From IMG/VR virus record IMGVR_UViG_3300042914_002848: 64,000 nt of DNA, one strand, 5' to 3'. Origin of the DNA: a virus. Taxonomy: Duplodnaviria > Heunggongvirae > Uroviricota > Caudoviricetes. Of the stretch, positions 1,823 to 48,016 are shown in pieces. The translations under genes and the position numbers were made by a program. The notes beneath the pieces are model-generated. The model searched no databases and was not told where the DNA came from. It saw only the letters and a program-made list of their open reading frames with translations. Positions within the stretch are counted from its first letter, which is position 1. Each line of letters starts with the position of its first letter.

Positions 1823-2425
1823 TTAATTCGTAAAGTTTACGGTTAAATTAGGATTACCAAGAAAATCAGGTTTTTTGTAATACTCCCATACTTCATCTAA
1901 TTGTTTTGGGTCTTTCACCCACATAATCCAATCAGCTTTTTTAATTTCTTCCTCCAACACATCAATGTAAAATGTTTTTGGTATAAATGGAAATCCTTTG
2001 ATTTCCAAAGAACTATGAAATCGGTTTGTATTGTTGATAGCATCTTCTCGAGTCATATAAATAGGTCCCGACCAAGTTGTTCCATTAGGACATCTTTTAA
2101 TAATAGCGTCATTATATGTAACCCTCCCATCGCTATCCTTAAACAATCCACTTTCTCTTTTATTTTGATACCAGGGTTCACCTGCTATATCTCTAATATC
2201 TCCCCACTCTTCATCTTTTCCTGTAATAGGCCCCAGTGGTTCGTAATTAGCTAATTTGTGAAATAAGGATGCTACAATCGGTGCTGAACCACCTGAGTGT
2301 CCTTGTTTTGCGAAGACTTCCATTAATTCCATAACCGCCTCCCCAATGGCTCCTGCGTAGTCAGAATCTTCATCAAAGAAGCCTGCTAATTCTAATTCAA
2401 ATTTTGCGTGTGATGTTGTGCTCAT
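1823..2425 (-). CDS. hypothetical protein
   Basis: 200-aa ORF; no motif recognised. Confidence 0.55.
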   Translation of the reverse strand: MSTTSHAKFELELAGFFDEDSDYAGAIGEAVMELMEVFAKQGHSGGSAPIVASLFHKLANYEPLGPITGKDEEWGDIRDIAGEPWYQNKRESGLFKDSDGRVTYNDAIIKRCPNGTTWSGPIYMTREDAINNTNRFHSSLEIKGFPFIPKTFYIDVLEEEIKKADWIMWVKDPKQLDEVWEYYKKPDFLGNPNLTVNFTN

Positions 2426-5102: not shown

Positions 5103-5387
5103 TTATAATTTTTTAAATTTAGGACTACAACCCAAATAGATTGAGTTTTTGAATGGTGTTACTCTATGGGTTTTAATTTTATGTTTCTTAATAACTTCAT
5201 CTACGATTTCAGAAAATTCATATTCACAAATTTCATGTGCCATAAAATCAATTACCTTTTGCCCATTTTCATCTATGGAGGCGTTATTCATTAATTCATC
5301 AAAATCGGCTGATGGGGTGGATGCTTTATATAGTTTCCTATAGCATTCCCTCATTGCTTCTATTTCTTTTGTTGTTGCGTTCATCAC
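5103..5387 (-). CDS. hypothetical protein
   Basis: 94-aa ORF. Its first 10 codons lie inside the 57-bp direct repeat. Confidence 0.5.
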   Translation of the reverse strand: MMNATTKEIEAMRECYRKLYKASTPSADFDELMNNASIDENGQKVIDFMAHEICEYEFSEIVDEVIKKHKIKTHRVTPFKNSIYLGCSPKFKKL

Positions 5388-5414
5388 AATTTTTCTACTT
5401 TAAGTTCACCATCA
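5358..5414. repeat. 57-bp direct repeat, copy 1 (spans the GS 3' end and the 5103..5387 gene's 5' end)
   Basis: Differs from 6435..6491 at 2 of 57 positions. Confidence 0.85.
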
Positions 5415-6409
5415 ATTTGTTTTAAGGCATCCGAAATAACTTTAACAATCTTATACGGGTCTGCATTTGAAGCAGGCCTTCTATCCTCAATATATCCCTT
5501 CCACTTCAATGATGTTTGAATGGGAACTCTTAAAGATGCACCTCTATCAGAAACACCCCAACTAAACTTATGTATGGATTGGGTTTCATGCTTACCTGTT
5601 AATCGTTGTTCATTAGATGAACCATAATTTTCAATATGTAAAGTGTGTCTACTTTCAAAAACATTGAATATTTTAGAAAAGTATTCCATTCCCCCAATTT
5701 CTCTCATTATGTGGTTTGAAAAATTACAATGTAATCCACTACCATTCCAATCACCCATAACAGGTTTTGGGTGAAACTCAATTTTATATCCCCACTTTTC
5801 GGATAACCTTTGTAAGATATATCGTGATATCCACAAGTCATCTGCAGCAGATTTTGATGAGGTATTGAATATCTGATATTCCCACTGTCCCAAAAGTACT
5901 TCTGCGTTGGTGCCTGTTATTGATAATCCAGTATTTAAGCAAATTTCAAGATGTTCATCTACGAATTTTCTACCACTTACATGCCCATCACCCACACCAC
6001 AATAATACATACCCTGTGGTGGTGGAAATCCATTTATTGGAAACCCAATCGGTCTACCATCTTTTAAAATAGTATATTCCTGCTCAAATCCATACCATAC
6101 ATTATCATAATCAGGTAATATGTGTCTAATATTACTTTCGTGTGGTGTCCCATCAGGATTCATAACCTCACACAAAACAAAATAACTTACATATGACCCC
6201 CCATCCATAGAATTTTGGTATAAAGCAACAGGTTTAAGTATTCTGTCAGAATAATGCCCTTCGGCCTGTTTTGTGGATGAACCATCGAATGACCACTCTG
6301 GGCAATCAGATAGGGTTATAGAATCTTTTTTGGATAATATTTTAACTTTACTTCTTAGGTTTGGTTCGGGTGTATATCCATCCAACCAAATGTATTCTAA
6401 TTTTATCAT
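5384..6409 (-). CDS. glnII: glutamine synthetase, type II (eukaryote-like GSII) homolog
   Basis: 341 aa, collinear with GSII. Matching blocks: EYIWLDG, GMYYCGVG, NAEVLLGQWEYQIF, HCNFS, RLTGKHETQSIHKFSWGVSDRGASLRVP, GYIEDRRPASNADPY. Confidence 0.8.
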   Translation of the reverse strand: MIKLEYIWLDGYTPEPNLRSKVKILSKKDSITLSDCPEWSFDGSSTKQAEGHYSDRILKPVALYQNSMDGGSYVSYFVLCEVMNPDGTPHESNIRHILPDYDNVWYGFEQEYTILKDGRPIGFPINGFPPPQGMYYCGVGDGHVSGRKFVDEHLEICLNTGLSITGTNAEVLLGQWEYQIFNTSSKSAADDLWISRYILQRLSEKWGYKIEFHPKPVMGDWNGSGLHCNFSNHIMREIGGMEYFSKIFNVFESRHTLHIENYGSSNEQRLTGKHETQSIHKFSWGVSDRGASLRVPIQTSLKWKGYIEDRRPASNADPYKIVKVISDALKQIDGELKVEKL

Positions 6410-11781: not shown

Positions 11782-11802
11782 ATCTTTTTCAATAAGTATA
11801 AT

Positions 11803-11837
11803 GTAAATATACCACACAAATGGTATATTTCCAAATT
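11803..11837 (-). promoter_or_regulatory. conserved phage promoter element
   Basis: Reads AATTTGGAAATATACCATTTGTGTGGTATATTTAC on the minus strand. Confidence 0.55.
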
Positions 11838-11876
11838 TTGTATATTAAATTTGCGTTAAGTTTTTTGAGTAAAAAA

Positions 11877-12111: not shown

Positions 12112-12270
12112 TTATTTAATAATATAATCAATTAATTGGGTAATTAGATAAAAAACCGATATCAACTGATAAGCCATCATCGTCAAAAAGCCAAGCGTAA
12201 TAATGGCCACCGATTGAACAAATATCCGAAGGGGTTTCATACTCATTGAGGTTGTTTCCATATCAATCAT
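12112..12270 (-). CDS. possible small membrane protein
   Basis: 52-aa ORF (MIDMETTSMSMKPLRIFVQSVAIITLGFLTMMAYQLISVFYLITQLIDYIIK) that starts 8 nt after a promoter element. Confidence 0.3.
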   Translation of the reverse strand: MIDMETTSMSMKPLRIFVQSVAIITLGFLTMMAYQLISVFYLITQLIDYIIK

Positions 12271-12278
12271 CTTACATA

Positions 12279-12311
12279 GTAAAGATACGAAGAAAACCCC
12301 ATATTTCCAAG
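12279..12311 (-). promoter_or_regulatory. conserved phage promoter element (part of a duplicated terminator-promoter module)
   Basis: Reads CTTGGAAATATGGGGTTTTCTTCGTATCTTTAC on the minus strand. Near-identical copy at 21619..21652. Confidence 0.55.
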
Positions 12312-12350
12312 CTTTCTATATTAAATTTAGGTTAAATTTATCCACATTTT

Positions 12351-14963: not shown

Positions 14964-17205
<2,242 letters not shown>

Positions 17206-17515: not shown

Positions 17516-17535
17516 AACTCCTTTTGTTTTTTTGA

Positions 17536-17570
17536 TAAATATACAAAATAATTTTTAAATTACCAAAATT
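17536..17570 (-). promoter_or_regulatory. conserved phage promoter element upstream of groES
   Basis: Reads TTTTGGTAATTTAAAAATTATTTTGTATATTTAT on the minus strand. Confidence 0.5.
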
Positions 17571-19325: not shown

Positions 19326-19517
19326 CTACACAATAGATAATTTTCTTTTTAAGTTTTTAATATGTTTACACTCCGAACCCCTACCGAATTCATAAGCAGG
19401 GCAGTTACATATAAATCGTTTATGATTAAAAGATGTAACATTGTAGTATTTGAGCCTCTTTGTTTTTTTATCACGAGAACCCATTTCAATGTAAACTTGT
19501 TTCCAATCTAAACTCAT
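19326..19517 (-). CDS. SWIM zinc-finger protein
   Basis: CxC-x(n)-CxH pattern in FICNCPAYEFGRGSECKHI. Confidence 0.45.
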   Translation of the reverse strand: MSLDWKQVYIEMGSRDKKTKRLKYYNVTSFNHKRFICNCPAYEFGRGSECKHIKNLKRKLSIV

Positions 19518-19535
19518 ATCTTTTATTTATTTTAG

Positions 19536-19618
19536 TAGTCAGGACAGGATTCGAACCTGTATTAGGGCTTACGACCTATGATACTCTATTTACTACAACG
19601 CCATGTAGCCACCTGACT
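19536..19618 (-). tRNA. tRNA-like element (83 nt)
   Basis: On the minus strand: 7-bp acceptor stem AGTCAGG/CCTGACT, T arm ACAGG-TTCGAAT-CCTGT, D stem CTAC/GTAG with GG in the loop. No canonical anticodon stem could be drawn by eye. Confidence 0.5.
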
Positions 19619-19624
19619 ATTTGT

Positions 19625-19834
19625 TTATTTTTCTAAAACATACCGCATCATTTCTTGCATCTTGAGAATCAAAACTTTCATTTCATCCTCATTAAGATAC
19701 AACCTACTGTTAGGTGTTTTATCATCTAATTCTTTGGTTTCTATGATGATTCCATCGAACTCTTCCGTGGGGTAAATTCCAACATTCTGTTCTTCTGTTG
19801 AAATAATAGTTTTAATCCAAACTTTGTTTTTCAT
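19625..19834 (-). CDS. hypothetical protein
   Basis: 69-aa ORF between the two tRNA-like elements. Confidence 0.45.
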   Translation of the reverse strand: MKNKVWIKTIISTEEQNVGIYPTEEFDGIIIETKELDDKTPNSRLYLNEDEMKVLILKMQEMMRYVLEK

Positions 19835-19852
19835 AACTTTTTATTTTTTTTG

Positions 19853-19974
19853 TAGTCAGGACAGGATTCGAACCTGCGGAGAACGGCTTGATAGTTTCTG
19901 CGCGAGGGCTACTTAATTCGCCACCCCTCAATCCTTGTTCTCAATTACGCTGCGGATACCACCGCCACCTGACT
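19853..19974 (-). tRNA. tRNA-like element, atypically long (122 nt)
   Basis: Same acceptor stem and T arm as 19536..19618, D arm GCGG-TGGTAT-CCGC, plus about 40 extra internal nucleotides. Confidence 0.35.
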
Positions 19975-20068
19975 GTGTTGAGGATGAGAAGTCCTCTGTG
20001 TTGTAAGTGTTTTCATAATTACTTCTAATTATCTACATTCCTTTCTCAAGAGAACAACACAATGTTGA

Positions 20069-20278: not shown

Positions 20279-20482
20279 TCAGGCGTGCTTTTCTTCCCAA
20301 ATTCGTAAAGTTTCATCAATTTCTTCGGGAGAAAGTTTATCTGCTAACTCTTCTAATTCGTTAGCAACATCATCAGAACACATGCCATAGGTCTCAATCA
20401 TACGATTAGCCTTCTCTTGAAGGTGAATAAATCGGCGAACATTTTCGTTTCTCACAATAATGGGGGTTAGTATCTCAATCAT
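20279..20482 (-). CDS. hypothetical protein
   Basis: The ORF-track start is a TTG; ATG at 20482 (MIEILTP) lies 6 nt after the promoter's -7 box. Confidence 0.45.
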   Translation of the reverse strand: MIEILTPIIVRNENVRRFIHLQEKANRMIETYGMCSDDVANELEELADKLSPEEIDETLRIWEEKHA

Positions 20483-20488
20483 TACATA

Positions 20489-20522
20489 GTAAATATACAA
20501 CAGAAAAATGGAGTTTCCAAAC
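20489..20522 (-). promoter_or_regulatory. conserved phage promoter element
   Basis: Reads GTTTGGAAACTCCATTTTTCTGTTGTATATTTAC on the minus strand. Confidence 0.5.
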
Positions 20523-20636
20523 TTTGTATGTTAAATTTAGGTTAAATTTTTAACTTAATTAAGCCATCATCAGTTCATTTTTAAGTTGTTCCTGATAGGG
20601 GTTATCCGACATCACAAATGTATCGTATTACTGGTG

Positions 20637-21588: not shown

Positions 21589-21618
21589 AATATAGGGGGG
21601 GTTTTTTTATCTTACATA

Positions 21619-21652
21619 GTAAAGATACGAAGAAAAACCCATATTTCCAAAC
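21619..21652 (-). promoter_or_regulatory. conserved phage promoter element (second copy of the duplicated module)
   Basis: Near-identical to 12279..12311. Confidence 0.55.
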
Positions 21653-21692
21653 TTTTGAGATTAAAATTCCATTAAAGTTATCCACATTTGTG

Positions 21693-23063: not shown

Positions 23064-23099
23064 TATAAATATACAAAAGAAAGTTTAATTATCCAAATT
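23064..23099 (-). promoter_or_regulatory. conserved phage promoter element
   Basis: Reads AAATTTGGATAATTAAACTTTCTTTTGTATATTTATATGT|ATG on the minus strand. Confidence 0.5.
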
Positions 23100-23196
23100 T
23101 ATTTTACTGGACTTGATTTAGTATCCTCACCCCTCTGTCTTGCTTTTCTTCCTGCACAATGTGCTTTTTGAGAAAACCCCTTTGGATTATTACAAT

Positions 23197-26692: not shown

Positions 26693-28408
26693 TTAATAAG
26701 TTAAAGTTGATTGATTTGTAAATCCTGGTGATAATAAATATAGGTTTGTTGTACCTCCACTCAAAGGAGTAAAAGTATAGGTAGATTGAACTCCTGGTAT
26801 TGAACTTCTTAAATCGGTTGTGCTGGTGGTTAAGGTTGTCCATTGTGAGTTTGTGAATAGTAAAGTTCTTTTAGTATAAGCCAACCCATTCACCCTTTTG
26901 ATTATTGTATTTATATCCCCAATCGTAATATTATTATCACCATTTAATTCATATTTGTGGTAGTGGTAAGACCTGAGTGGTGTTCTTTGTAATATAATAT
27001 CATCAACTCCTACAAAATCAATAGAAGATAGATTTGAGGTTGTAGTTGGGATTACTACTTCAATATACCATTCATCTCCGTTTGTTATTGGCTGTGAAAA
27101 TGAATATTCCCCTAAAGTGTTTGTTGTAGATGTGGTTTGTTGAGTCCAAGAAGTGAATGTTGGTGCTAATACACCCAACTCCGATGTTTGTAATGAATAG
27201 GTACTTTGATTGGGTCTTTTCCAAACAACAGCCAATCCATCACCCCCACCATATTCTTGCATCCTTGCTCTAAAAGTGTATTGAGTCCCCGCTACTAAGT
27301 TTATATTCCCATATATCGGCCCACTCATTCCGTGTCCACCATAATAACTTACTACAAAAGTTCCACCAATGAATAAATCACTACCATCATCTGAATTTAT
27401 ACCAAATGAGTATGTCCCACTTACAGCAGGTATAAATGTCCCCGTAACTTCAACCGAATAGTAATCTCCATTATTGGGAACAGTTGCACCTGCATTTCTT
27501 ATAGTTGTAAATGTATTAAAGTTTAAGCAAGTTGTTGTAGGTAATGTCCCCGACCATCTGAGTTGAGTATTCGTAAAGGTTGTATTGAACAATCTATCAA
27601 ATTCAGTTGTGTTCGTTGGATGCGCCACATATTGTGATGTGTTTCCATTTCCAGCATGCGTTGAAAAAACCTTTACATCCATCACATTAGATAATCCAAT
27701 TGTTTGACCCCTCTTAAAAAGTTTTGTAAGTATGTTTGAAACAGGTACATCGTTTTCAGTTCTGATAATGCCTGAGTGTGTAAAAGGTATGAAGGGTGTA
27801 AACAATACAGATGAATTAGAAGTCGGACTCCAATTAACACCATTTCTACCTGTTGTTGTGATTATTTGTGAGTTATTGTTGTTTGATATCCCTTGAAGAG
27901 ATGCACCAGAAGAACACCCCGGATGTGTACTGACATTTATTTGTATTGTATTTGTTGTTTCTGATAATACGATTTGAAAATCCGTAAAAAGTGTGGTGCT
28001 GGAATTACAGCTATAATAACCTATATGATAACTTACAACAAATTTTCGGTTTGGAGATGAACCAATGGTTTGGTATCTTACAAAGTAACCAGAGATTGGA
28101 AATAAATCCATAGCATTGGCATGAATACCATTACTTACTACACTATTAGGCGAACCACCAACAATATCACCACCTGCATTTGTAAAAGATATCCATCCAT
28201 TAGAACATATATTGACTGTTGTAAAATTTGTTCCCCAATAACTGAATGTAAAACCTATTGGTAAATTAGATATAGTTTGGTCATCCCCCAAAGTTAAAGC
28301 AGTCCCAGCAGTTGATTCGTATGAGTAGGTTGGTGTTGATTGGGTATAACTCATTTGCCCAAATACCGAAAATGGTAGTAATAGTAATAATATCAACTTT
28401 TTCATCAT
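26693..28408 (-). CDS. secreted PA14-domain protein (carbohydrate-binding, adhesin-like)
   Basis: Signal peptide MMKKLILLLLLPFSVFGQ. PA14-like block GTYSFGINSDDGSDLFIGGTFVVSYYGGHG...LVAGTQYTFRARMQEYGGGDGLAVVW. Confidence 0.6.
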   Translation of the reverse strand: MMKKLILLLLLPFSVFGQMSYTQSTPTYSYESTAGTALTLGDDQTISNLPIGFTFSYWGTNFTTVNICSNGWISFTNAGGDIVGGSPNSVVSNGIHANAMDLFPISGYFVRYQTIGSSPNRKFVVSYHIGYYSCNSSTTLFTDFQIVLSETTNTIQINVSTHPGCSSGASLQGISNNNNSQIITTTGRNGVNWSPTSNSSVLFTPFIPFTHSGIIRTENDVPVSNILTKLFKRGQTIGLSNVMDVKVFSTHAGNGNTSQYVAHPTNTTEFDRLFNTTFTNTQLRWSGTLPTTTCLNFNTFTTIRNAGATVPNNGDYYSVEVTGTFIPAVSGTYSFGINSDDGSDLFIGGTFVVSYYGGHGMSGPIYGNINLVAGTQYTFRARMQEYGGGDGLAVVWKRPNQSTYSLQTSELGVLAPTFTSWTQQTTSTTNTLGEYSFSQPITNGDEWYIEVVIPTTTSNLSSIDFVGVDDIILQRTPLRSYHYHKYELNGDNNITIGDINTIIKRVNGLAYTKRTLLFTNSQWTTLTTSTTDLRSSIPGVQSTYTFTPLSGGTTNLYLLSPGFTNQSTLTY

Positions 28409-30721: not shown

Positions 30722-32623
30722 TTAGAATTTAAATATTTTGTAAACTTTTTGCTTTTCGTTAGTGGTTAATCTTACAAAGTAAAAACCTGTCTTTAAATCA
30801 CTAACATTGATTTTTTTCGTAACTACTTGATTTTGATTTACGAACTCTTTTTCTGAATAAAAGTTTTTACCCATATAATCGTAGATTTCGTATGTTAAAT
30901 ATCCCCAATCAGTTTGGAAATAATCTATGTTTAAGTTGTCTTGAACAGGGTTAGGATATACTCTGAATCCATTCACCAATTGGTCTACCAACTCTCTTGC
31001 TCTTCTACCATTAACCACAGTCGCATCTACAGGTGAAGGGATGATATTCAAATCTTCTGCTTTTTCATTTCCCGCTGCTTTGTTGGTTATTTTAATAGGT
31101 GATTGTTCCCAGTTTTGATTTAAGATTTCAAATTGGAAATTGAACATTTGAGTTGGGTTGGTGATAAGTGATGGAGACATTTTAGATTCGTGTCCACCCC
31201 AAGTTATCTCACCAGGCTTTGCTGAAATGAATGCGTTCCAAGCACTTGCTTCAGGCCCTACATTAACATTTGTAAACCTAAAAATGGTTGGGTCATACTT
31301 TAAAGATAATTGTGCCGCACCTACTTTGTTTCCGTGTGTGATAAAGGTAACAGCAACATTTACTGAATTATCATCTGAAATAGTTAATTTAGGTATTCTA
31401 AATTGAACCGAATCTTCAATGTTTTGATAGATTGTTCCTTCATCCAATACATAAGATGTTCCGCTTGTTGGGTTGTTTACTCTTTGAATTTGGAATGATA
31501 AGTTGTTTAATCCAGTATTTGTTACATCCCCTAAAACATACCCTCTATAACTTAACGAACTTAATCCATTCAATGGAACATCAATGTTAGTTGTACCTAT
31601 GATATTGGTTTGGAATACATCTGGGTTAGCCATAATCGTAGCGTATTCTCCTGCGGTATAATACCTAATATTGTATTCATTTGCTACTACAGGAGACCAA
31701 GTAGTTCTACCTGTTGCTAAACGATTAAATATTAAATAAGCATCGGATACGGATAATGTGTTATTGCGGTTTACATCACCTTGTTGGAACTCGTATGCTT
31801 GGGCAGTATCAGCGTAAATACTCATATCGGATAATCTATAAGCATCGGTAATGTTGATAGCTGAATTATCAGATAGGGTATCTAAATTTGATACTAACTT
31901 AACATTGTAGAAAGATGTATCGTATGGGATTTTAATTCCTGCTAAACCAGCAGCGTCTGTTACAAATCTTTCACCACGACTATAAGTTTGTGTGGTTTTC
32001 AGTTTGTAATCAAATGCGAATGGCATATCCGGCGCAGGTGTTCCATCTACATTTAATAAGGTTACGGGGAACACCAAAGTATCCATTTGGAATCTACCTC
32101 CGTAGCTGTAAACACCTAAAGCGTTATCAACACCAGCGGTTGTGGTTGCTATGTTTGTGTAGGCAGGGGTAGATTGAACTTCTAATGAATCAACGGAAGA
32201 AGGATTGAACCCAACGGCGTGTGGGAGTAAAACTTCAAATATAGCACCATCTGGCCAATCAAATACTGCTGATGTCCCAGTATAGATTGCCGTTGCGTTT
32301 ACCCAACCAGGCTGACTATAATAAGAACCATACTTTGTACCGATTCCTGCTGCGGTTGGTCCCCATTTTACAATAGGTTGCTTGAAAGCTGCGGTAGGGT
32401 AAAAAAATCTTACCTGAAAACCAGCATAACTTACTGCAGTTGGATTGTGATAGTGTAAATATACTACAGTAGTGTCCTCTAATACACTACCCAATGTAAA
32501 CACCGTATCAATCAAAAAGTGTGGTGAGTTTGAGTTTGGTGATACTAATACTTCCGTTCTTCCGTTTTGAGCAAATGCTCCAAATGGTAAAAGTAACGCA
32601 AATAATAAAATAAGTTTTTTCAT
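30722..32623 (-). CDS. secreted protein with type IX secretion system C-terminal sorting domain (T9SS cargo)
   Basis: Signal peptide MKKLILLFALLLPFGAFAQ. C-terminal CTD: YPNPVQDNL...EIYDYMGK...INVSDLKTGFYFVRL...KVYKIFKF, matching the Por_Secre_tail pattern. Confidence 0.7.
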   Translation of the reverse strand: MKKLILLFALLLPFGAFAQNGRTEVLVSPNSNSPHFLIDTVFTLGSVLEDTTVVYLHYHNPTAVSYAGFQVRFFYPTAAFKQPIVKWGPTAAGIGTKYGSYYSQPGWVNATAIYTGTSAVFDWPDGAIFEVLLPHAVGFNPSSVDSLEVQSTPAYTNIATTTAGVDNALGVYSYGGRFQMDTLVFPVTLLNVDGTPAPDMPFAFDYKLKTTQTYSRGERFVTDAAGLAGIKIPYDTSFYNVKLVSNLDTLSDNSAINITDAYRLSDMSIYADTAQAYEFQQGDVNRNNTLSVSDAYLIFNRLATGRTTWSPVVANEYNIRYYTAGEYATIMANPDVFQTNIIGTTNIDVPLNGLSSLSYRGYVLGDVTNTGLNNLSFQIQRVNNPTSGTSYVLDEGTIYQNIEDSVQFRIPKLTISDDNSVNVAVTFITHGNKVGAAQLSLKYDPTIFRFTNVNVGPEASAWNAFISAKPGEITWGGHESKMSPSLITNPTQMFNFQFEILNQNWEQSPIKITNKAAGNEKAEDLNIIPSPVDATVVNGRRARELVDQLVNGFRVYPNPVQDNLNIDYFQTDWGYLTYEIYDYMGKNFYSEKEFVNQNQVVTKKINVSDLKTGFYFVRLTTNEKQKVYKIFKF

Positions 32624-33524: not shown

Positions 33525-34712
33525 TTAGGCATAATTATTCACAATTTTTATTAAATCATTTTCGTAATGTCTTACTGAACTAATATGGAATTTAAATATA
33601 TCCATTTCATAATAACCAACTGATATTTCATTCTCTGTTAAAATCTCCGATAATCTTTCAATAAATATAAAGTTATTTTGGTTTAACATCGTACCATCAA
33701 ACTCAACAACAATATCATTTTCACAAATAGGGTCGTGGTGGTTAATTAAACGAATTCTTCTACTTAAATCAAACTTTGTATTTTTTTGTTCTTCATCAAT
33801 GTAATTGGTGGTTATCATACCATATCCATCTTCTATGTATATTTTATCACACCAAGGTTCTAATGCCCTCAACAACTCTAAATTACAATTCTTTACTACT
33901 AACCCAACACCATATTTGTGGGGGATGATTGGATACTGATACTCATCGTTTTTTATCCAACTACCCCATTTACGCAGGTAGTTTCGGGCAGCAGATTGTT
34001 TCATATTATGAAAATCTACATCTTTGGTAACTTGCTCTATTCCATCCTGAAACTGACCTCCTCTACAAGTTAGATGATACACAAAAGCTGTCCATATTTG
34101 TGTAATATCATATCCATTTAAAATAAATCTATTAAAAATATCACTATCTTCGTGATAAGAGTGAAAAGTTTCATCGTGCATCCCAATTTTAGTAATATCT
34201 TCTTTATAACAAGCCCATGGAGCAAATATCCCTTTGGTTGTTATGTTTTGATTTTTCGTAATTAACTCCCTCACAAATTCATCAAATTCTTCTTTTTTAA
34301 AATCTTCAGGATAAAGTCCAAAGTTTTTAACTATTTTTTCTTTTCCTTCTGGGTGTAATGGTGGTTCAATTCTAGTTCCGGCTACAATACTACCCCGTTT
34401 CAAAAACTTTAAAATATTTTCATCAAACCCTCTAGCCACATACATATCAGCGTGAAACATACAAACTATTTCAGTAGTTGCCATTTCAATACACTTATTA
34501 TAAGCATGGGCAATTCCTTGTGGTTTATTTAAATCATTTTTAAGGTATTGAATTCCGTTTTCAATTAACCATGTTTCTGTCCCATCCTCATCCATATCAA
34601 CATAGACAATAATATGGTGTTCAATAGCACTATTTTCTTTAATAGATTTAATACTATTTTTTAAATATCTAAGATTGTTTTTGCTTGGGATACAAAAAGT
34701 TATTTTATTCAT
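33525..34712 (-). CDS. glycosyltransferase family 2 with C-terminal extension
   Basis: GT2 N-terminus ITFCIPSKNNLRYLKNSIKSI...VYVDMDEDGT. Start set at MNKITF to avoid overlapping the upstream gene. Confidence 0.6.
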   Translation of the reverse strand: MNKITFCIPSKNNLRYLKNSIKSIKENSAIEHHIIVYVDMDEDGTETWLIENGIQYLKNDLNKPQGIAHAYNKCIEMATTEIVCMFHADMYVARGFDENILKFLKRGSIVAGTRIEPPLHPEGKEKIVKNFGLYPEDFKKEEFDEFVRELITKNQNITTKGIFAPWACYKEDITKIGMHDETFHSYHEDSDIFNRFILNGYDITQIWTAFVYHLTCRGGQFQDGIEQVTKDVDFHNMKQSAARNYLRKWGSWIKNDEYQYPIIPHKYGVGLVVKNCNLELLRALEPWCDKIYIEDGYGMITTNYIDEEQKNTKFDLSRRIRLINHHDPICENDIVVEFDGTMLNQNNFIFIERLSEILTENEISVGYYEMDIFKFHISSVRHYENDLIKIVNNYA

Positions 34713-34713
34713 A

Positions 34714-35271
34714 TCAAACCCAATGTGTAAATTTAACTCCAATTTTTTCAATTTCTTTTATCAATTCAATTGTACTGTTTTTATCTTCCCCATTTTCTAA
34801 AATAGGATACATATCTTTGTGTGAATGAAACTCTACAAATAAATCATTTAGATATTGAATTGAATTATCTTCTATCATTTTTCTCAAAACAGCATATTCC
34901 GCACCTTCTATATCCATTTTAACAACTATAAAATCATCTTTAGAAAAATTTTGTATTATAAATTCGCTAAAATCCAAACACATTACATCAATAGAGCCAT
35001 AGTAATTTTTTCCTATATGGTTTTTATATATAGATGATGAATCGGTGTTTGGGTATGCAATATTAAACGTAATTATTTCATTATTAGTATATATTGCTTT
35101 ATTAATGTAATGAATATTATTGTGAATATTTTGTTCGTTGTGCTCTTGCCATAAATAAGTGTTAGGTTCAAATGAGTATATTTCCCAACTACTATCCATA
35201 TTATACATTTGTATGAATTTCATTAAACCCTCTGCCAAATGTGTCCCGCAATCTAAAAATATTTTTTTCAT
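34714..35271 (-). CDS. FkbM-family methyltransferase
   Basis: FLDCGTHLAEG and the overall FkbM layout. Confidence 0.55.
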   Translation of the reverse strand: MKKIFLDCGTHLAEGLMKFIQMYNMDSSWEIYSFEPNTYLWQEHNEQNIHNNIHYINKAIYTNNEIITFNIAYPNTDSSSIYKNHIGKNYYGSIDVMCLDFSEFIIQNFSKDDFIVVKMDIEGAEYAVLRKMIEDNSIQYLNDLFVEFHSHKDMYPILENGEDKNSTIELIKEIEKIGVKFTHWV

Positions 35272-35283
35272 ACTATCTAATTA

Positions 35284-36117
35284 TTATTTTGGTAAACACA
35301 ATAAGTTATGACCAGATTTCGGTGATATATCAGTATGTGTTTTAATTTTATTTCCTAAATTGTTAATATCAAATACACCATTACGTTCATCATAGCACTC
35401 ATAGTTTAAATCGGCTATAACATATAATAGTTCATCTATTTCTTTAAAATTTAAACCATCGTATAATTCTGTTATTAATACAGGTTTACATTCAGTTATA
35501 ATAGGTTTAAGGGTTGGAATTATATTTTTATCATGTCCTTCAGCATCTATTTTGATTAAACTAATATTATTTATTAAATTATTGTGGTGTTCTTTTAAAA
35601 AATCGGCTGTATTTACAGCAAAAACATCCAATGGAATAGTATGGCCGGTGACCCCGATACCAGCATTTAAAGATTCCGCGTATCCGCCATTACAAAAACC
35701 ATAGTCGGAATAATGAAAGGTTAAGTTTGTATTTTTTGTAGAACACGCTAAATTGTAAGGAATAATATTTTGATGTATGGTTGAATTTAATTCCAACACT
35801 TCATAAGCAACTGGATTTGGTTCGAATGAAATAACTTTATTTGCAAATAGTGAAAAAGCTATGGACATATTTCCTACTTGGGCACCAATATCTATTACAT
35901 TTGAATTTGGTCTAATTAACTTCTTTATATTATTTAATATGGTATTGGTAAATAATTCGCGTTGCTCCCAATTTCCTTGATATGGGTGATTCCATTTATA
36001 ATATTTAAAATTATATTCAATAATATTGTAATTAACAATACTGCTTGAATAGTGAAAGTTATTTTTTTTTAAAAATTGTATAACTTCTTCTCTGTATTCT
36101 TTAATTTCTTTTAACAT
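35284..36117 (-). CDS. SAM-dependent methyltransferase (FkbM-like)
   Basis: Motif I VIDIGAQVGNMSIAF. Confidence 0.55.
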   Translation of the reverse strand: MLKEIKEYREEVIQFLKKNNFHYSSSIVNYNIIEYNFKYYKWNHPYQGNWEQRELFTNTILNNIKKLIRPNSNVIDIGAQVGNMSIAFSLFANKVISFEPNPVAYEVLELNSTIHQNIIPYNLACSTKNTNLTFHYSDYGFCNGGYAESLNAGIGVTGHTIPLDVFAVNTADFLKEHHNNLINNISLIKIDAEGHDKNIIPTLKPIITECKPVLITELYDGLNFKEIDELLYVIADLNYECYDERNGVFDINNLGNKIKTHTDISPKSGHNLLCLPK

Positions 36118-36995
36118 AAAATTTTATTTTTAAATTTTTCTAATTCATTTAAAAGATTTGCTTCAGCGTGTCTTTTAAACTCCAATTGCTTATCAATTAA
36201 GTGTAAATATTTTTGATATGGATTATGGCGGTATTTAAAATTTTCTATAACTATTACTTCTTCTAGCACAAATTGTTGTATATTGTAATTACAGTTCTTC
36301 ATTATATCACAACACAACATAACATATGTATCATCCACACCATATGGTCCAAATGAATCAGGAATATCTGTTAATTTTAATAATTTAGTGGATAGCAAAT
36401 TAAACCAACCACCACCGAATTTAAAATAATTTATACTTTTTAAATTTACATCACCACTAAAAGAATAGTTGACAATTTTAAAAGGATCAACATTCCTATA
36501 TCTTTCTAAATTTGGTGATAAATTGATAAAATTTTTGTTTACTAAAGAATCCCAACTATTATCCCACATTTTCATTATTTCCGGTGATATAACGTAATAA
36601 TCAATATTAATTTTTTTAGAAGATTCTATCAAATAAAAAAAATGCTCGGGTTTAAATATAACATCACAATCTAAATAAAGAATATTATCAGAGGTGGTTG
36701 AACGTACAGCTTCTCTTCTTTTATCATCACACCCCATACATTTACTATCATCATCAATCACAAACTGAGTTTCCGCCCAATCCCACAATTTTTTTATTTG
36801 ATTAAATTTATCAATGAAAAATTGTTTAGGTATTTGTGATTTTTTCCAGTCAACTAAATTTAAATTTAAAGTGGTATCTATTATTATTTTATCTTCTGGA
36901 TTCAGATAATAACTACCAATTTTAAATTGTAATGATTGCCATTCAAACCAGTCTATTTCATGTGGTAGTAGATGAACTACTATATGCGTTTTCAT
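36111..36995 (-). CDS. hypothetical protein (glycan island)
   Basis: 294-aa ORF. Confidence 0.5.
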   Translation of the reverse strand: MKTHIVVHLLPHEIDWFEWQSLQFKIGSYYLNPEDKIIIDTTLNLNLVDWKKSQIPKQFFIDKFNQIKKLWDWAETQFVIDDDSKCMGCDDKRREAVRSTTSDNILYLDCDVIFKPEHFFYLIESSKKINIDYYVISPEIMKMWDNSWDSLVNKNFINLSPNLERYRNVDPFKIVNYSFSGDVNLKSINYFKFGGGWFNLLSTKLLKLTDIPDSFGPYGVDDTYVMLCCDIMKNCNYNIQQFVLEEVIVIENFKYRHNPYQKYLHLIDKQLEFKRHAEANLLNELEKFKNKILC

Positions 36996-37843
36996 TTTAG
37001 TAAATGTTTAAATTTATTTTTGTTTATTTTTATGTACTCAGGCAAGTTTACATTATCTATCCAATATTTAAATTCATTTCTACCTAGAATATCTGTATTA
37101 CTTTCTAAACTGTTAGAAATGTTGTTTTTAATATAATCATTATTATATTCTTGATGGCCAAAATTTTCTATTTTGGTTTTAATTCTATCAACACCACCTT
37201 GATAAGAAAAATGCCAACCAGCATTATCAATATAGGTGTATGTAGTTTTATTTGGAGTATCTAAGTGATTTACACTTGCATTTTTAACATTTTTAAATTT
37301 AGTATAATAAGTTCCGGCCCATTCTTCACTACTGCGCATGTTAAGATACATAGAAAAAACCAATTGTTTACACTTATATATTTGATTATCATCTATAACA
37401 TAACTAATATTTGGATTCCAAATTTCATCCAAATCCGATATATAGCACACGTCATCATCGGCAATTCCAGCATTAATTAAAGCATCTTTCATACATTCTT
37501 TTTGATAAAATTCACGCATCCAATGAAACTGCCCATATGGTACATTTGTAGTAGTTAAACAATTCAAATATTTTTGTTTATCAATAGTTGTTGATGCATT
37601 CAAAAATCTGAATTGAAGCTCCTCATACGATTTTGGGGTATCATCAACTATATGATGTATTATTTTGTGTGCATATTTTTTAAATAATTCTTTATTTTCA
37701 TCATAAAATAATTTTTTATTTAATCCAGAAAAAGAAATGTTTGATTCAACAATTACAAATTTATCTACAACATTTTCAAGTGTATTTAATCTAATTTCTA
37801 ATAATTCTAATTCATTAAAGAATATAAAGCAATCGTATATCAT
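36992..37843 (-). CDS. glycosyltransferase, GT17-like (tentative)
   Basis: N-terminus DCFIFFNELELLEIRL...VDKFVIVESNISFSG resembles bacterial Glyco_transf_17 homologs. Confidence 0.45.
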   Translation of the reverse strand: MIYDCFIFFNELELLEIRLNTLENVVDKFVIVESNISFSGLNKKLFYDENKELFKKYAHKIIHHIVDDTPKSYEELQFRFLNASTTIDKQKYLNCLTTTNVPYGQFHWMREFYQKECMKDALINAGIADDDVCYISDLDEIWNPNISYVIDDNQIYKCKQLVFSMYLNMRSSEEWAGTYYTKFKNVKNASVNHLDTPNKTTYTYIDNAGWHFSYQGGVDRIKTKIENFGHQEYNNDYIKNNISNSLESNTDILGRNEFKYWIDNVNLPEYIKINKNKFKHLLK

Positions 37844-38742
37844 TTTAAGTAAATTTTTGTTTGATTAATAAATAAATTTAATTCTCTTTTACATTCATCG
37901 TATGTTTGTAAATTTCCAAATCTATCCATATAAATAAAATCTTTATATAAATTACAACCCATAGACCAATACCCGTTAGATATATTATGTCTTGCCCAAT
38001 ATTTTGGAGCAATAATTAATTTTGCTAACTCATTTGTTAAAGCTGGGAAATATCCAAAGCTAGAGTTGGATAAAATTAACCACTTTGCGTTTTTTATTAT
38101 TGAATAATCCTCCCCAACACCCATGTGAAAAACATTATCGGATAACTCAGGTAATAAATTTTTTACACAATTTGGATTTTCGGTAATTACAGCAAAAGTC
38201 ATTTGGGGATTAATACTTAGCATATGATTAATAGCATTAACCCAATATGTTCTAGATAAAAATAATGTATCATCACCCTCATAGTCCCGTATATTTAAAA
38301 TACACACATCATCATTTGAAAAATCATATATATCATATTCGGGCTTAACACATAACCATTTTTTAATATCATTTTTATAATCATAAAAATAATCTTCCGA
38401 TTGTAATAATCCATCTATTTTGCAATTATCATGTAACGATAACACATTATAATCAGTCAACCGTATATCACACCCTATAGTTGCATCGTGCTGACTAGTA
38501 TTTAATTTGATTCTACATTCTTTTTCTTTGTAGTAATTAGTAATTGCGCTAATATCAACAGGCAATCCTAAATCCAAATCCATAAAATACACTCCTTTAT
38601 CGTTGTATCTTCTATCTCCAAAGTTTTCTAAACCAGTGAAACCAAATTCATACCCATTGCGTAGTGCAATAGCTCTTGTTGTAACATATACAGCAAGTTG
38701 GTTTCCAAAACCCTGTCCATAATAAAATTCGGTTGTTATCAT
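37840..38742 (-). CDS. glycosyltransferase family 11-like (alpha-1,2-fucosyltransferase-like)
   Basis: N-terminal GQGFGNQL resembles the GT11 GGLGNQMFQ motif. Confidence 0.5.
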   Translation of the reverse strand: MITTEFYYGQGFGNQLAVYVTTRAIALRNGYEFGFTGLENFGDRRYNDKGVYFMDLDLGLPVDISAITNYYKEKECRIKLNTSQHDATIGCDIRLTDYNVLSLHDNCKIDGLLQSEDYFYDYKNDIKKWLCVKPEYDIYDFSNDDVCILNIRDYEGDDTLFLSRTYWVNAINHMLSINPQMTFAVITENPNCVKNLLPELSDNVFHMGVGEDYSIIKNAKWLILSNSSFGYFPALTNELAKLIIAPKYWARHNISNGYWSMGCNLYKDFIYMDRFGNLQTYDECKRELNLFINQTKIYLK

Positions 38743-38760
38743 TAGATATAAATTTTATAG

Positions 38761-40113
38761 TTAATTGGATATTAAGTTATTATAATTATGATTTTTTCCA
38801 TGAAAGCCAAATGTTAATATACCATTATTTTCCGGTATTGGTGTTTCAAAAGAAAATTTTGATGCAACATCAATTGGTGCAAATTTACAACCATTTGCTT
38901 CATAAATGTGCTTGTTATGACAACAAAAAAATCCATCTTCGTTGTAAAACCCAAAGTAAGACTTCCACTCAAGATCCAATTCACTAGCTAATCTAAGTAG
39001 TTTTTTACTTCGCAGTGAAAAACCACCATTTCCAACTCGTTGTAAGTTACCATAACTATCTTTAAATGAAAAATCATCTTCAGGTATTGGCCACGGAGCT
39101 CCTATATAATCATATTCTAAAAACAAACCATCCCATTGTTCTGCATTAACAACAAACCCATCCTCTTGTATAATAAGGGCAAATTCAGTATTAATATATT
39201 TATGTAATTCATATACAATAAATTTACTGTATTCATCGGTATTTAGTATGGGGTTAATTTTAATAACATCTATATTATCTAACACACATTCTTCACTTGT
39301 TAATAATAAAACATTTTTAAATTCAATATTTTTTACAGAATATTGTAACGCTTTTATAGCACGTTGCACATTAACAGATGTAACACATACTAGTGTAACA
39401 TTTTCTAAATACTTTTTGTATTTTTTAGTAATGTAGTGCACTTCTTTTTCTATAATTTTATCATTAACTATTGTATTTGTTGTTCTGTTAGGATGTTCTC
39501 TATTTACAACAGTAACATAGTTACAAATACTTGGTAGTCCAAATTTATCATACAAACGTTTATAATAGTCAACATCAACCAACCATATTAGATTTTCATC
39601 AAACTCCAAAACATTTTTATTTTTAAACATTAAAACACTGGGTGAACTAATAGTATTTTCACCATAATGAATATTATCGTGATATTTAGGATATACTGTG
39701 TTGTAAAAATTTATTCCATCATTGGAATGACAGCAAGCTGTCACCATCCAATGGTTGTAATTTCCTACAAAATGATATATTTGATAGTATAAACTGTTTT
39801 CATCTACCAAAAAATCATCTTGACAAAGTATTTTTATAACATCACCCGAAGCCTTTGATATTACATTGTTTAAATTGGGCGCAAGTGTTCCGTATTTTTT
39901 TTGATAAAAAAAGTGTTTTATATTTAATTTATTAGACCATTCATAACACAAATTTTTTATTTCATCATTTTTACTATGATCTGAAATAATAATTTCAAAG
40001 TTAGTGTAAGTTTGTTTGGCTAATTTTTGAAAAGAAAAATCTAAATATTTTTTTCCGTTTCCACCCATTTCATATGTTGGTATGCATACACTAATTAAAG
40101 GTAAATTATTCAT
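38761..40113 (-). CDS. glycosyltransferase family 2 with additional C-terminal domain
   Basis: ISVCIPTYEMGGNGKKYLDFSFQKLAKQTYTNFEIIISDHS. Confidence 0.6.
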   Translation of the reverse strand: MNNLPLISVCIPTYEMGGNGKKYLDFSFQKLAKQTYTNFEIIISDHSKNDEIKNLCYEWSNKLNIKHFFYQKKYGTLAPNLNNVISKASGDVIKILCQDDFLVDENSLYYQIYHFVGNYNHWMVTACCHSNDGINFYNTVYPKYHDNIHYGENTISSPSVLMFKNKNVLEFDENLIWLVDVDYYKRLYDKFGLPSICNYVTVVNREHPNRTTNTIVNDKIIEKEVHYITKKYKKYLENVTLVCVTSVNVQRAIKALQYSVKNIEFKNVLLLTSEECVLDNIDVIKINPILNTDEYSKFIVYELHKYINTEFALIIQEDGFVVNAEQWDGLFLEYDYIGAPWPIPEDDFSFKDSYGNLQRVGNGGFSLRSKKLLRLASELDLEWKSYFGFYNEDGFFCCHNKHIYEANGCKFAPIDVASKFSFETPIPENNGILTFGFHGKNHNYNNLISN

Positions 40114-40114
40114 T

Positions 40115-40792
40115 TTAAAAAACTTTTTTTAATTTGCTTATATTCATTGTAATGTTATTTGGCGCATTAATTGGTGCGTTGATGGGTTTTGTATCAAATT
40201 CTTTTTTTGTAAGACTATGCCAAGTTTTTATTTCAGTACCTACATTATAAATACCAAAACAATTTTTATAAATTAACTTTATAATTAACTCTGATATTTT
40301 ATTTACATAATCACCATTTGTAAATTGATTATCCCATGCGTTTTTATATGGAAATGGGTATGGTTTATGAGATGTTCTAACTATTAAATAGTTTTTACAT
40401 TTTAATTGTATGTGGGCATCACCAAGTAATTTTGTGTAACCATACCAGGTTTCTAAATGAACAGGAACATCTTCCTCTGATGCTTCTGTTTTAGAATTTG
40501 CATAAATATAATCAGTAGATATATGAGCAAGTTTTTTTCCTGTCTCGTTACAAAAATTTACTAATGTATCAACAAACTCATAATTTACTTTCCAATGCAA
40601 TTCTTTATTATTTGAATATGTGTCTGTATTTGCTATGCAATTAATGATAACGTCATATTCAGAAAGTTTAAACATCCATTGGTTAAAGTCAAAAATATCT
40701 ATTCCATCTTTTTTTCTTGAAATATAATCCCAATTAGTTTGTTTAACCAATTCAGAACCTAATAAACCATCACCAAGAATTACTATTTTCAT
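40115..40792 (-). CDS. NAD(P)-dependent sugar-nucleotide 4-reductase (RmlD/Rmd-like)
   Basis: Rossmann N-terminus MKIVILGDGLLGSELV and the YxxxK region. Confidence 0.5.
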   Translation of the reverse strand: MKIVILGDGLLGSELVKQTNWDYISRKKDGIDIFDFNQWMFKLSEYDVIINCIANTDTYSNNKELHWKVNYEFVDTLVNFCNETGKKLAHISTDYIYANSKTEASEEDVPVHLETWYGYTKLLGDAHIQLKCKNYLIVRTSHKPYPFPYKNAWDNQFTNGDYVNKISELIIKLIYKNCFGIYNVGTEIKTWHSLTKKEFDTKPINAPINAPNNITMNISKLKKVF

Positions 40793-42075
40793 TTAAAATT
40801 TTTTACAACGGATTCAATATATTCAAAAACTACATCAGTATAGTGTGGTGCGGCCCCAATAAAAAATACTTTATCTAAAACTTTATTAGCTTCAGGATAG
40901 TTTGATGAATTGTCTAAAAATGAATATCCCGGATGTAACAAAATATTACCTGCAAAATAATTTCTCGTCTGAATTTTATTTTTTTCCAAATGTTCAACTA
41001 ATTTATGCTTTAACCCTTCTTCTTCACAAACAAATGGAGTACCAAACCAACTTACATCCGCTTTATCCAAAGATTTAATACCCCTAATTCCTTTTATATT
41101 TGAGGTAAAAATATTCTCAATTGTTTCTTTTGATTTTTTTCTATTAGTTTCAATCTCATCAAATTTATCCAATTGAACAGAACCTATAGCCCCCTGTAAA
41201 TCCAATGGTTTTAAATTATAGCCCATATTTGAAAAAACATATTTATGGTCTATTATACCATCATATGAATCTAACCAATTATTAAATCTTTTACCACAAG
41301 TACCACAACTTAACAAATTAGCTGAACCCACGCAGTAGCAATCTCTACCCCACCATGCTATACTTGTTAATAATTTTTTTAATTCTTCTTCATTAGTCCC
41401 AATCAACCCACCTTCTCCAGTAGAAATATGGTGTGCTGGGTAGAATGAATTTGAGTATGCTATATAATACTCATTTAAATATTTGCCACCCCATTTTGAA
41501 CCCAAACTATCACAGTTATCTCCAATTAGTTTTAAATTGTATTTTTCACAAATTTCAATAAGTTTATCAAAATCTGGCGGATTGCCTAAAACGGGGGAAA
41601 CAAATATTGCTTTAGTTTTATTTGTTATTTTTGATTCTATTTGATTTAAATCAAAATTCAAAGTATCCCATTCAATATCTACAAATACAGGCTTAAGTCT
41701 ATTTTGATATAAAACAGATATTGTTGTGGCAAAACCAACAGGTGAAACAATAACTTCATCATCATCTTCCCAACCAAAATATTTTTTTAAAGCGGTTATC
41801 ATTACTAAATTTGCAGAGCTACCTGAGTTTACCATTTGGTTGAATTTTGAATTAAATTTTTTACCAAATTTTCTTTCAAATTTCCAAACTTCTTCTCCAG
41901 CAGTAATCCATTTACCATTTAAAAATGTATTAACAGCAGCTTCTATTTCTTTATTATCCCAATATGGGCCTGAGTAGTAAATGGGTGTAGTTCCCGCTTT
42001 GAATTCTTTAGAATTGTATATGTAGGGGGCTACATGATTTCCAATTAAAGATTTAATTTCATTTTGTAAAATCAT
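40789..42075 (-). CDS. DegT/DnrJ/EryC1/StrS-family PLP-dependent sugar aminotransferase/dehydratase
   Basis: Family-typical size and NSGSSANLVMITAL block. A Cys cluster (CYCVGSANLLSCGTCGKRF) hints at an E1-type 3-dehydrase. Confidence 0.6.
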   Translation of the reverse strand: MILQNEIKSLIGNHVAPYIYNSKEFKAGTTPIYYSGPYWDNKEIEAAVNTFLNGKWITAGEEVWKFERKFGKKFNSKFNQMVNSGSSANLVMITALKKYFGWEDDDEVIVSPVGFATTISVLYQNRLKPVFVDIEWDTLNFDLNQIESKITNKTKAIFVSPVLGNPPDFDKLIEICEKYNLKLIGDNCDSLGSKWGGKYLNEYYIAYSNSFYPAHHISTGEGGLIGTNEEELKKLLTSIAWWGRDCYCVGSANLLSCGTCGKRFNNWLDSYDGIIDHKYVFSNMGYNLKPLDLQGAIGSVQLDKFDEIETNRKKSKETIENIFTSNIKGIRGIKSLDKADVSWFGTPFVCEEEGLKHKLVEHLEKNKIQTRNYFAGNILLHPGYSFLDNSSNYPEANKVLDKVFFIGAAPHYTDVVFEYIESVVKNFK

Positions 42076-42131
42076 ATTTTAATTTTTGTATTTTATTTTT
42101 TAAATTTATATAAAAACTATTTTATATAGAG

Positions 42132-43019: not shown

Positions 43020-43020
43020 A

Positions 43021-44001: not shown

Positions 44002-44024
44002 TTTTATTTATTTTTATTTATTAT

Positions 44025-44780: not shown

Positions 44781-44789
44781 TGTTATTTT

Positions 44790-45458: not shown

Positions 45459-45523
45459 TTTGTTTTAAATTTTATTTTATCAAGCAATGTACTAAACCAC
45501 TTGAATTCATATATAATATTTTT

Positions 45524-46297: not shown

Positions 46298-46303
46298 ATA
46301 ATA

Positions 46304-47811: not shown

Positions 47812-48016
47812 AACATTCTAAAAAATATGTTTGATCTATTTCAACTGAAAGAATTTTATTAAAGCCCAAGTCTAGGGCTTTTAGTATGCCATCTCCATGA
47901 TGAGTGCATGTTTCAAAAAATATATTATGATTAAATTTATATTTTTTGGATAATTCAAAAAAAGTTAATCCTTTAATTCCTTCAACTGTGACTTGAGAAT
48001 GTGTTTTATATATCAT
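47798..48016 (-). CDS. hypothetical protein
   Basis: 72-aa ORF. Confidence 0.35.
   Translation of the reverse strand: MIYKTHSQVTVEGIKGLTFFELSKKYKFNHNIFFETCTHHGDGILKALDLGFNKILSVEIDQTYFLECYDNT

Follow-up and report, generated by a model that had tools for sequence, protein, structure and literature searches.

Two tRNA-like elements of a Caudoviricetes genome belong to a large modular family with a tRNA-Leu-like top half and exchangeable interiors

Two elements without an anticodon arm

The 64-kb window considered here (the whole stretch of DNA that was analysed, from the Caudoviricetes record IMGVR_UViG_3300042914_002848) contains two tRNA-like elements, E1 (19536-19618, 83 nt) and E2 (19853-19974, 122 nt). 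Both lie on the minus strand, which is the strand of every large open reading frame (ORF) in the window and is thus the gene strand. The pair had been picked out in an original prediction as two elements with identical acceptor and T arms, a common 5' start and a common 3' 25-mer, and folds and shuffles confirm this description. We find in addition that the two belong to a very large modular family, in which a near-invariant top half resembling that of tRNA-Leu is combined with exchangeable interiors.

E1 and E2 share the 5' start AGTCAGGTGGC and the exact 3' 25-mer CAGGTTCGAATCCTGTCCTGACTAC, which has 2 matches in the window against 0.00 expected in shuffled sequence, and the pattern GGTTCRANTCC occurs at only two places in the 64 kb, E1 and E2. 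Minimum free energy folding closes a 7-bp acceptor stem (AGUCAGG/CCUGACU, with discriminator A) in both elements, along with a D-type hairpin whose loop contains GG. The T arm, with a 5-bp stem and a TTCGAAT loop, reads (A/G)CAGG-UUCGAAU-CCUGU in both, the loop conforming to UUCRANY. The D arm that had been claimed for the 83-nt element is present as a hairpin (Table 1). The D loops of the pair are compact and atypical, with 6 nt and without A14 or A15, while A73, the GG, and a pyrimidine at position 48 are present. The nucleotide at -1 is T in E1 and C in E2, and C-(T/A)-AAA stands downstream of both.

No anticodon arm (a 5-bp stem with a 7-nt loop, U33, and R37, positions 27-43) appears in the fold of either element, as had been noted of the 5-bp stem of E1. 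Each has instead an interior, or payload, between the D hairpin and the T arm. In E1 this consists of a 13-nt single strand, AAAUAGAGUAUCA, and a short hairpin, UAGG-U-C(GUAA)G-C-CCUA, which is capped by a GUAA tetraloop and adjoins the T arm at the position of a class II variable arm. The interior of E2 folds into a GAGAAC/GUUCUC helix around a GAGGG...CCCUC hairpin, with a second, smaller hairpin.

Lacking an anticodon arm, E1 and E2 cannot decode. ARAGORN returned 0 tRNAs and 0 tmRNAs in the window, and Rfam nothing at its gathering score; no canonical tRNA gene or Rfam family at E<=1 was found in the 64 kb, though related contigs hold dense tRNA arrays. The tRNA model RF00005 matched the T arm of E1 alone, at 14 bits against a gathering threshold of 29 bits, and did not match E2. 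A weak match was to SpF41_sRNA (19.6 bits, E=2). By comparison, a family model, R1, which represents the chassis of other phages' elements and excludes E1-type sequences, matches exactly at E1 (49.6 bits, E=3e-11) and E2 (42.8 bits, E=2e-9) and nowhere else in the window, covering model positions 1-52 but skipping the D arms. The folds, the ARAGORN and Rfam results, and the shuffles therefore leave no room for the two outcomes that would have undone the original prediction, namely ordinary tRNAs and chance similarity. On the chassis match, the tRNA-type flanks, and the gene-strand orientation, E1 and E2 are members of the R1 family.

The original prediction had offered three identities for the pair. 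That of divergent phage tRNAs finds no support, given the missing anticodon arm and the behaviour of relatives. ARAGORN called only 31 of 154 of these, with scattered and impossible anticodons that include some of 2 and 4 bases. The Rfam tRNA model scores many of them at 31-50 bits, above the gathering score, in local alignments that skip the anticodon arm, 15 of its model positions being replaced by an unaligned insert. One tRNA with a small intervening element lacks support as well: conserved exon sequence runs only as far as the D stem and begins again at position 48, which means that removal of the insert would leave no anticodon arm, and no intron family matched at E<=1. What fits is the remaining identity, tRNA-derived RNAs that do not decode.

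Two other tRNA-related classes were considered and rejected. Against transfer-messenger RNA (tmRNA) stand the negative ARAGORN search of the window and a U:A pair at 3:70. Against YrlA or another bacterial Y RNA stand the element ends, which form the acceptor stem itself, and the want of an Rfam match. No TROVE domain was found among the 30 window proteins scanned against Pfam, a scan that took in about half of the window's ORFs of at least 150 aa.

A family with a near-constant top half and exchanged interiors

The exact 25-mer is present in at least 119 IMG/VR contigs, at 1-8 copies per locus. A 22-mer from its sequence was found in 18 contigs of species-representative genomes, all of them contigs of metagenome-assembled genomes and mostly from Bacteroidota (Chitinophagia, Sediminibacterium, Flavobacterium, Saprospirales). 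Mimicry of a host tRNA is rejected, since this 22-mer is in no host tRNA of 185,579 species genomes, all 18 matches being payload-bearing elements. Neither the 25-mer nor the 1-kb region was matched in full in INPHARED, which covers cultured and deposited phages, and all family data are metagenomic. Among 202 instances at the loci that were fetched, 197 sequences are distinct; lengths run from 54 to 191 nt (median 103), and the contigs measure 4 kb to 308 kb. The 3' half served as the search key, so its invariance is partly ascertainment; variants with 1-3 changes exist.

Every member starts with AGTCAGG (or GGTCAGG), complementary to its 3' end, and most continue with TGGCGGAAT(T)GGTAGACGC after the acceptor strand. 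In most members positions 8-25 read TGGCGGAATTGGTAGACGC, exactly as in E. coli tRNA-Leu, and the family-wide T arm is ACAGGUUCGAAUCCUGU. The interior between the D stem and position 48 measures 0 to ~130 nt, and almost every copy has its own, even within one genome: ~125 of 156 interiors are singletons and the remainder form 13 clusters of 2-4. The smallest member, in contig L036, is a minimal chassis of 54 nt. A near-canonical minority sits on the same minihelix, comprising a Lys(UUU) element with 66 Rfam bits, an Ile(UAU)-like element, and 90-nt Leu(UAA)-like elements, from which it seems that the family probably grew out of real phage tRNAs. The use of one acceptor stem and T arm across tRNA identities is unusual and hints that the top half, too, is a module subject to shuffling. 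Apparently, then, this is a large and undescribed family of tRNA-like elements in uncultured phages of Bacteroidota.

Some members carry additional features. Directly 5' of the element in L008, L019, L025, L032, L033, L294, and others stands a hairpin followed by AACAT (GCTCG-GAAAGA-CGAGC-AACAT, then AGTCAGG), a possible processing signal or promoter hairpin. Several interiors (L128, L082, L054, and others) contain a second T-arm-like hairpin (ACGGTTCGATTCCGT, CTCGTTCGATTCGAG), and a few elements have a second insertion within the D loop.

The pattern of conservation points to constraint on an RNA. Position 48 is T in 135 of 161 members, and the 15:48 Levitt pair covaries (A:T 111, G:C 7, mixed 4). 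D stems occur in the compensatory types GCG/CGC, GUG/CAC, GCA/UGC, and ACC/GGU, A73 and G18G19 are kept, and G-U pairs are found on the gene strand only. The flanks are those of genuine tRNAs of the same loci, with T at -1 in 108 of 128 elements and 151 of 209 tRNAs, and with -2 A, -4 A, and a downstream N73-C-A/T-A-A common to both. Orientation is with the coding strand in 171 of 187 informative cases. Together, the Levitt covariation, D-stem compensation, G-U bias, flanks, and orientation suggest that the elements are transcribed and matured by the same 5' and 3' machinery as phage tRNAs. In nine E1-type variants from other contigs every stem persists (99% of cells paired), with 2 compensatory, double-sided pairs and with G-U pairs that would be A-C mismatches on the opposite strand.

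Charging by leucyl-tRNA synthetase (LeuRS) needs A73, A15-U48, and G18G19, while the anticodon and variable arms are dispensable (PMC9976931). The family consensus holds all bacterial LeuRS identity elements (A73, A15:U48, G18G19, and the D/T elbow) and has lost exactly the dispensable parts, so that leucylation is a testable possibility and typical members may be leucylated. Charging of E1 and E2 is less likely because of their short, atypical D loops without A14/A15.

Comparison of loci shows how the interiors vary. The window and contigs L092 and L218-221 are ~87% identical on both sides of the pair and have two elements at the same place, with a divergent stretch that runs from inside the 5' end of element 1 to the T arm of element 2 and takes in both interiors together with the intervening DNA, which in the window encodes a 69-aa ORF. 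A second, independent, and cleaner case is one syntenic locus in L021, L064, L072, L100, L103, and L108, where flanks ~90% identical enclose four interiors of 90, 93, 133, and 160 nt, with breakpoints after AGTCAGGTGG and in the T arm. Since near-identical phages have different interiors at the same locus, we conclude that interiors are exchanged as cassettes. The payloads themselves travel: that of E1 recurs on this chassis with at least 9 unrelated sets of flanks, E2 recurs with its 88-nt leader in L303, and the 133-nt allele recurs in L037. A 75%-identical relative is without the elements and the whole 2-kb accessory block around them. On these comparisons the invariant ends behave as portable homology. 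No endonuclease gene consistently adjoins the elements; endonuclease-like clusters occur at variable distances in few loci, among them GIY-YIG-like ORFs in 11 loci, and the window has an HNH gene (Table 1).

The surroundings of E1 and E2

The 88-nt leader that accompanies E2 ends in a hairpin that stops 5 nt before the 5' end of the element. It is absent in the close relative L218 and present in L303 together with a near-identical copy of E2, where its stems are kept and the enclosed sequence has diverged. This leader could be a second small RNA freed by RNase P cleavage. The 69-aa ORF between the two elements, which has no Pfam or PHROG match, sits within the segment that differs from the close relative, and has a homologue (68%) in L041 with flanks that are not alike. 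Relatives become homologous again within the T arm of E1, upstream of a 63-aa ORF. The repeat that E1 and E2 share runs on 3' into the A-rich leader and the ATG of the next ORF, over 46 nt at 89% identity.

An 81-nt intergenic repeat, two copies of which flank the 2-kb accessory block holding E2 and E1, reads TTGG-N19-TAnnTTTA(C) on the gene strand and resembles the Bacteroidota -33/-7 promoter; pieces of it also match the relatives L092 and L222. The copy at 20479-20559 is the probable promoter of the transcript that carries E2 and E1, and the repeat may be both promoter and shuffling module. No sigma-70-type promoters or terminators adjoining E1 or E2 were found on the minus strand. In the family, a Bacteroidota -7 box (TAnnTTTG) ends 3-14 nt upstream of only 15 of 166 elements, 8 of which represent one locus.

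Other genes of the window are listed in Table 1. A Bacteroidota host fits the protein with a type IX secretion sorting domain. A low-GC island, with many ORFs of 220-450 aa, is probably a glycan-modification cluster; its ORFs were scanned to ~37 kb and include a GT2 glycosyltransferase and two FkbM-type methyltransferases.

Table 1. Positions of E1, E2, and other features, in the window unless a contig is named.
Feature	Position	Strand	Remarks
E1 acceptor 5' strand	19612-19618	minus	
E1 D hairpin	19592-19609	minus	6 bp
E1 interior (payload)	19561-19591	minus	in place of anticodon and variable arms
E1 T arm	19544-19560	minus	
E1 acceptor 3' strand	19537-19543	minus	discriminator A at 19536
E1 copy of the 25-mer	19535-19559	minus	
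E2 acceptor 5' strand	19968-19974	minus	
E2 D hairpin	19952-19965	minus	GCGG-UGGUAU-CCGC
E2 interior (payload)	19878-19951	minus	~74 nt
E2 T arm	19861-19877	minus	
E2 acceptor 3' strand	19854-19860	minus	discriminator A at 19853
E2 copy of the 25-mer	19852-19876	minus	
88-nt leader accompanying E2	19975-20062	minus	8-bp long-range helix and hairpin GAGGA-cuucuca-UCCUC
69-aa ORF	19625-19834	minus	between E2 and E1; start 18 nt past E2 discriminator
63-aa ORF	19326-19517	minus	CxC...CxH motif; start 18 nt past E1 discriminator
81-nt intergenic repeat, copy 1	11793-11873		
81-nt intergenic repeat, copy 2	12269-12349		
81-nt intergenic repeat, copy 3	20479-20559	minus	
81-nt intergenic repeat, copy 4	21609-21689		
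Shorter copies of the 81-nt repeat	17535-17570, 23065-23100		
Tad3-type anti-Thoeris homologue	1823-2425		
Glutamine-synthetase-like protein	5384-6409		
GroEL chaperonin	14964-16571		
HNH gene	16576-17205		
PA14-domain protein	26693-28408		
Cohesin-like protein	30722-32623		type IX secretion sorting domain
Low-GC island	34000-48000		25-29% vs ~34% GC
Near-identical copy of E2	L303 708-922		leader at L303 708-795
Near-canonical members	L037 13031-13101; L064 4958-5030		also the 90-nt elements of L064, L072, and L103

What the elements may do

We suggest, with a probability of roughly 0.6, that these are tRNA-Leu-derived genes whose top-half chassis is cut by tRNA enzymes to give a stable, non-decoding RNA with a variable payload, and whose ends mediate exchange. 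RNase P, RNase Z or exonucleases, and the CCA-adding enzyme read only the acceptor/T minihelix and the elbow. The elements would be transcribed with their neighbours on the gene strand, and RNase P would recognise the chassis at its 5' end, with RNase Z or exonucleases acting at its 3' end alongside the CCA-adding enzyme. The expected outcome is a discrete, stable small RNA, with the adjoining mRNA cut free. Because the RNA cannot decode, the chassis would be a natural scaffold for processing and stabilisation, on which a variable payload RNA is displayed. At the level of DNA the invariant ends serve as the portable homology by which interiors, and sometimes the DNA between elements, are swapped between phages, as the comparison of loci shows.

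The evidence on the function of the interior is mixed. Among the variable predicted pairs of the 13 payload clusters, 5 are compensatory, 6 one-sided, and 1 broken, and in one payload hairpin 3 compensatory pairs enclose a loop that does not vary, on which pattern at least some payloads are maintained hairpins. That copies in a single genome bear different payloads also speaks for a function. A number of points weigh against the proposal of a processed RNA with a functional payload. Payload folding has a mean z of -0.39 against -0.29 in coding controls (p=0.03), and with folding energies barely below controls many payloads may be weakly structured or unconstrained. No payload motif common to the family was found, only subfamily-specific k-mers, and no associated protein, the commonest neighbouring cluster occurring in 15 of ~138 loci. 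The interiors of E1 and E2 have no complementary match of at least 12 nt elsewhere in the window. The covariation counts come from small clusters, with structures fitted to the same data, and processing and stability of the RNA are read from sequence. E1 and E2 themselves depart from the family in D arms that the R1 model skips and that are without the loop A14/A15. As a separate matter, a possible target of the E1 hairpin 16-mer, one conserved coding gene in 10 viral contigs, was rejected, being roughly estimated as a single chance event.

A more far-reaching proposal is that Bacteroidota phages load and swap a large library of effector RNAs (decoys, aptamers, antisense) in the tRNA-Leu top half, processed by RNase P and RNase Z and possibly charged by LeuRS, for use in conflict between phage and host or between phages; this we put forward only as a tentative idea that may well prove wrong. 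If right, it would make the family an RNA counterpart of hypervariable protein anti-defence loci and a natural precedent for the engineered tRNA scaffold. With the evidence on the interior being mixed, a serious rival is that the elements do nothing beyond punctuating mRNA, with RNase P and RNase Z freeing the short 5' leader of the next ORF and the interior being filler. A conserved chassis with a hypervariable interior, as observed, is what this would predict, and the weak folding of the payloads suits it. An ORF starts at most 30 nt past the discriminator in 65 of 163 elements (40%) compared with 29 of 158 genuine tRNAs (18%), E1 and E2 are each 18 nt from the next ORF start, and their repeat continues into the leader and ATG of that ORF. 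Compact phage genomes, however, place any intergenic element near the next start codon, RNase P and RNase Z do not need near-exact sequence conservation, and the 54-nt chassis of L036 implies that long interiors are unnecessary for cutting. Filler would also not be expected to show compensatory changes in its hairpins, or to be kept as identical payload types on the chassis across many unrelated contexts, and we consider the explanation unlikely. It is quite unlikely, too, that the conserved halves are portable recombination or homing sites that shuffle accessory DNA between co-infecting phages, with the RNA incidental. The exchange breakpoints do fall within the conserved halves, the elements occupy variable accessory regions and are missing from the 75%-identical relative, and GIY-YIG-like ORFs and the HNH gene are at hand. 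Yet the endonuclease genes are neither adjacent nor general, and such a role leaves unexplained the tertiary nucleotides, the Levitt covariation, the strand-specific G-U pairs, the tRNA-type flanks, and the co-orientation with genes. A role at the level of DNA can, moreover, coexist with a function of the RNA.

The remaining alternatives stay closer to genuine tRNAs. Decaying pseudogenes of phage tRNA-Leu and other tRNAs, with the anticodon region lost by insertions and deletions, would account for the few near-canonical members (the 90-nt Leu(UAA)-like, Lys(UUU), and Ile(UAU)-like elements) and for a CUUAAG remnant in some payloads. Neutral decay would also strike the acceptor, D, and T arms, however; across ~200 copies in widely differing phages these arms are near-invariant, show compensatory changes, and keep their tertiary pairs intact, which makes decay very unlikely. 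As for functional decoding tRNAs of unusual shape, whose anticodon loop would have 8 nt, whose variable arm would be giant, or whose intron some unknown enzyme would excise, the many relatives above the Rfam gathering score and the 4-bp hairpin with an 8-nt loop in E1 might speak for them. The Rfam matches are nonetheless local and without the anticodon arm, the ARAGORN anticodons are incoherent, the E1 hairpin lies at the variable-arm position with its tetraloop cap, and there is neither an intron-family match nor an anticodon stem in the exons. To decoding we give hardly any credence.

For a tRNA-derived, processed RNA with a variable payload, as we prefer, the known systems offer partial likenesses. 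Class II tRNA-Leu is likely the ancestor of the family, which shares with it the 7-bp acceptor, A73, the UUCGAAU T loop, G18G19, and A15:U48, along with the D arm at positions 8-25 in most members and the flanks of genuine phage tRNAs. The family differs in having no anticodon arm, a hypervariable interior, and an acceptor that starts with A1-U72, and E1 and E2 further in their compact D arms, in going uncalled by ARAGORN, and in falling below the Rfam gathering score. In the engineered tRNA scaffold of Ponchon and Dardel, made for recombinant RNA expression, a foreign RNA reportedly takes the place of the anticodon region in a tRNA body, and tRNA enzymes process and stabilise the product; the construct is artificial and is said to retain the anticodon stem as junction. 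The logic is the same, but the family is natural, the whole anticodon arm is gone, the linker is often single-stranded, and interiors are swapped between genomes.

Non-decoding mimics of the top half and elbow that are handled by tRNA enzymes also include tmRNA, YrlA, and the 3' tRNA-like structures of plant viruses. tmRNA has a tRNA-Ala-like domain with G3:U70, pseudoknots, and a tag ORF, and the plant-virus structures are 3'-terminal parts of RNA genomes. In YrlA the tRNA-like domain is internal, the acceptor-like stem is closed, and the RNA ends form the Ro-binding helix, which is the opposite topology to that of the family. To our knowledge, none of the three has a swappable hypervariable module. 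T4-type phages carry promoter/stem-loop cassettes. In T4, the SegB endonuclease recognises T-psi-C-encoding DNA and drives the inheritance of neighbouring genes (PMC2330249). As in the T4 tRNA region and cassettes, accessory DNA here moves non-reciprocally between related phages by way of short conserved sequences, T-psi-C-encoding DNA included; unlike there, no endonuclease is consistently adjacent, and what is conserved is a tRNA-like gene that folds and is constrained as RNA. A survey of IMG/VR has reported candidate tRNA-like phage motifs that overlap ARAGORN tRNA calls only sometimes (PMC10690425). Compared by description only, some of these could be subfamilies of the present one, but no conserved chassis, tRNA-Leu origin, hypervariable interior, or cassette exchange was described for them.

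Neither Rfam 15 nor the searchable literature, in concept and exact-sequence searches, yielded a description of the family, and a new functional class among the tRNA mimics is a genuine possibility. Standard tRNA and Rfam annotation is blind to E1 and E2, and relatives are missed or mislabelled as tRNAs with odd anticodons, so that counts of "tRNA genes" in Bacteroidota phages probably include non-decoding elements. The family shows how conserved ends of 10-26 nt can drive cassette exchange between phages, provides ~200 natural payloads for functional screening, and is an in vivo test case for the minimal-substrate biochemistry of tRNA-Leu. If the elements are processed RNAs, these phages would have repeatedly reused the half of the tRNA that is read by the maturation, CCA-adding, EF-Tu, and LeuRS machinery as a carrier of unrelated small RNAs, a device that bioengineers arrived at for the expression of recombinant RNA.

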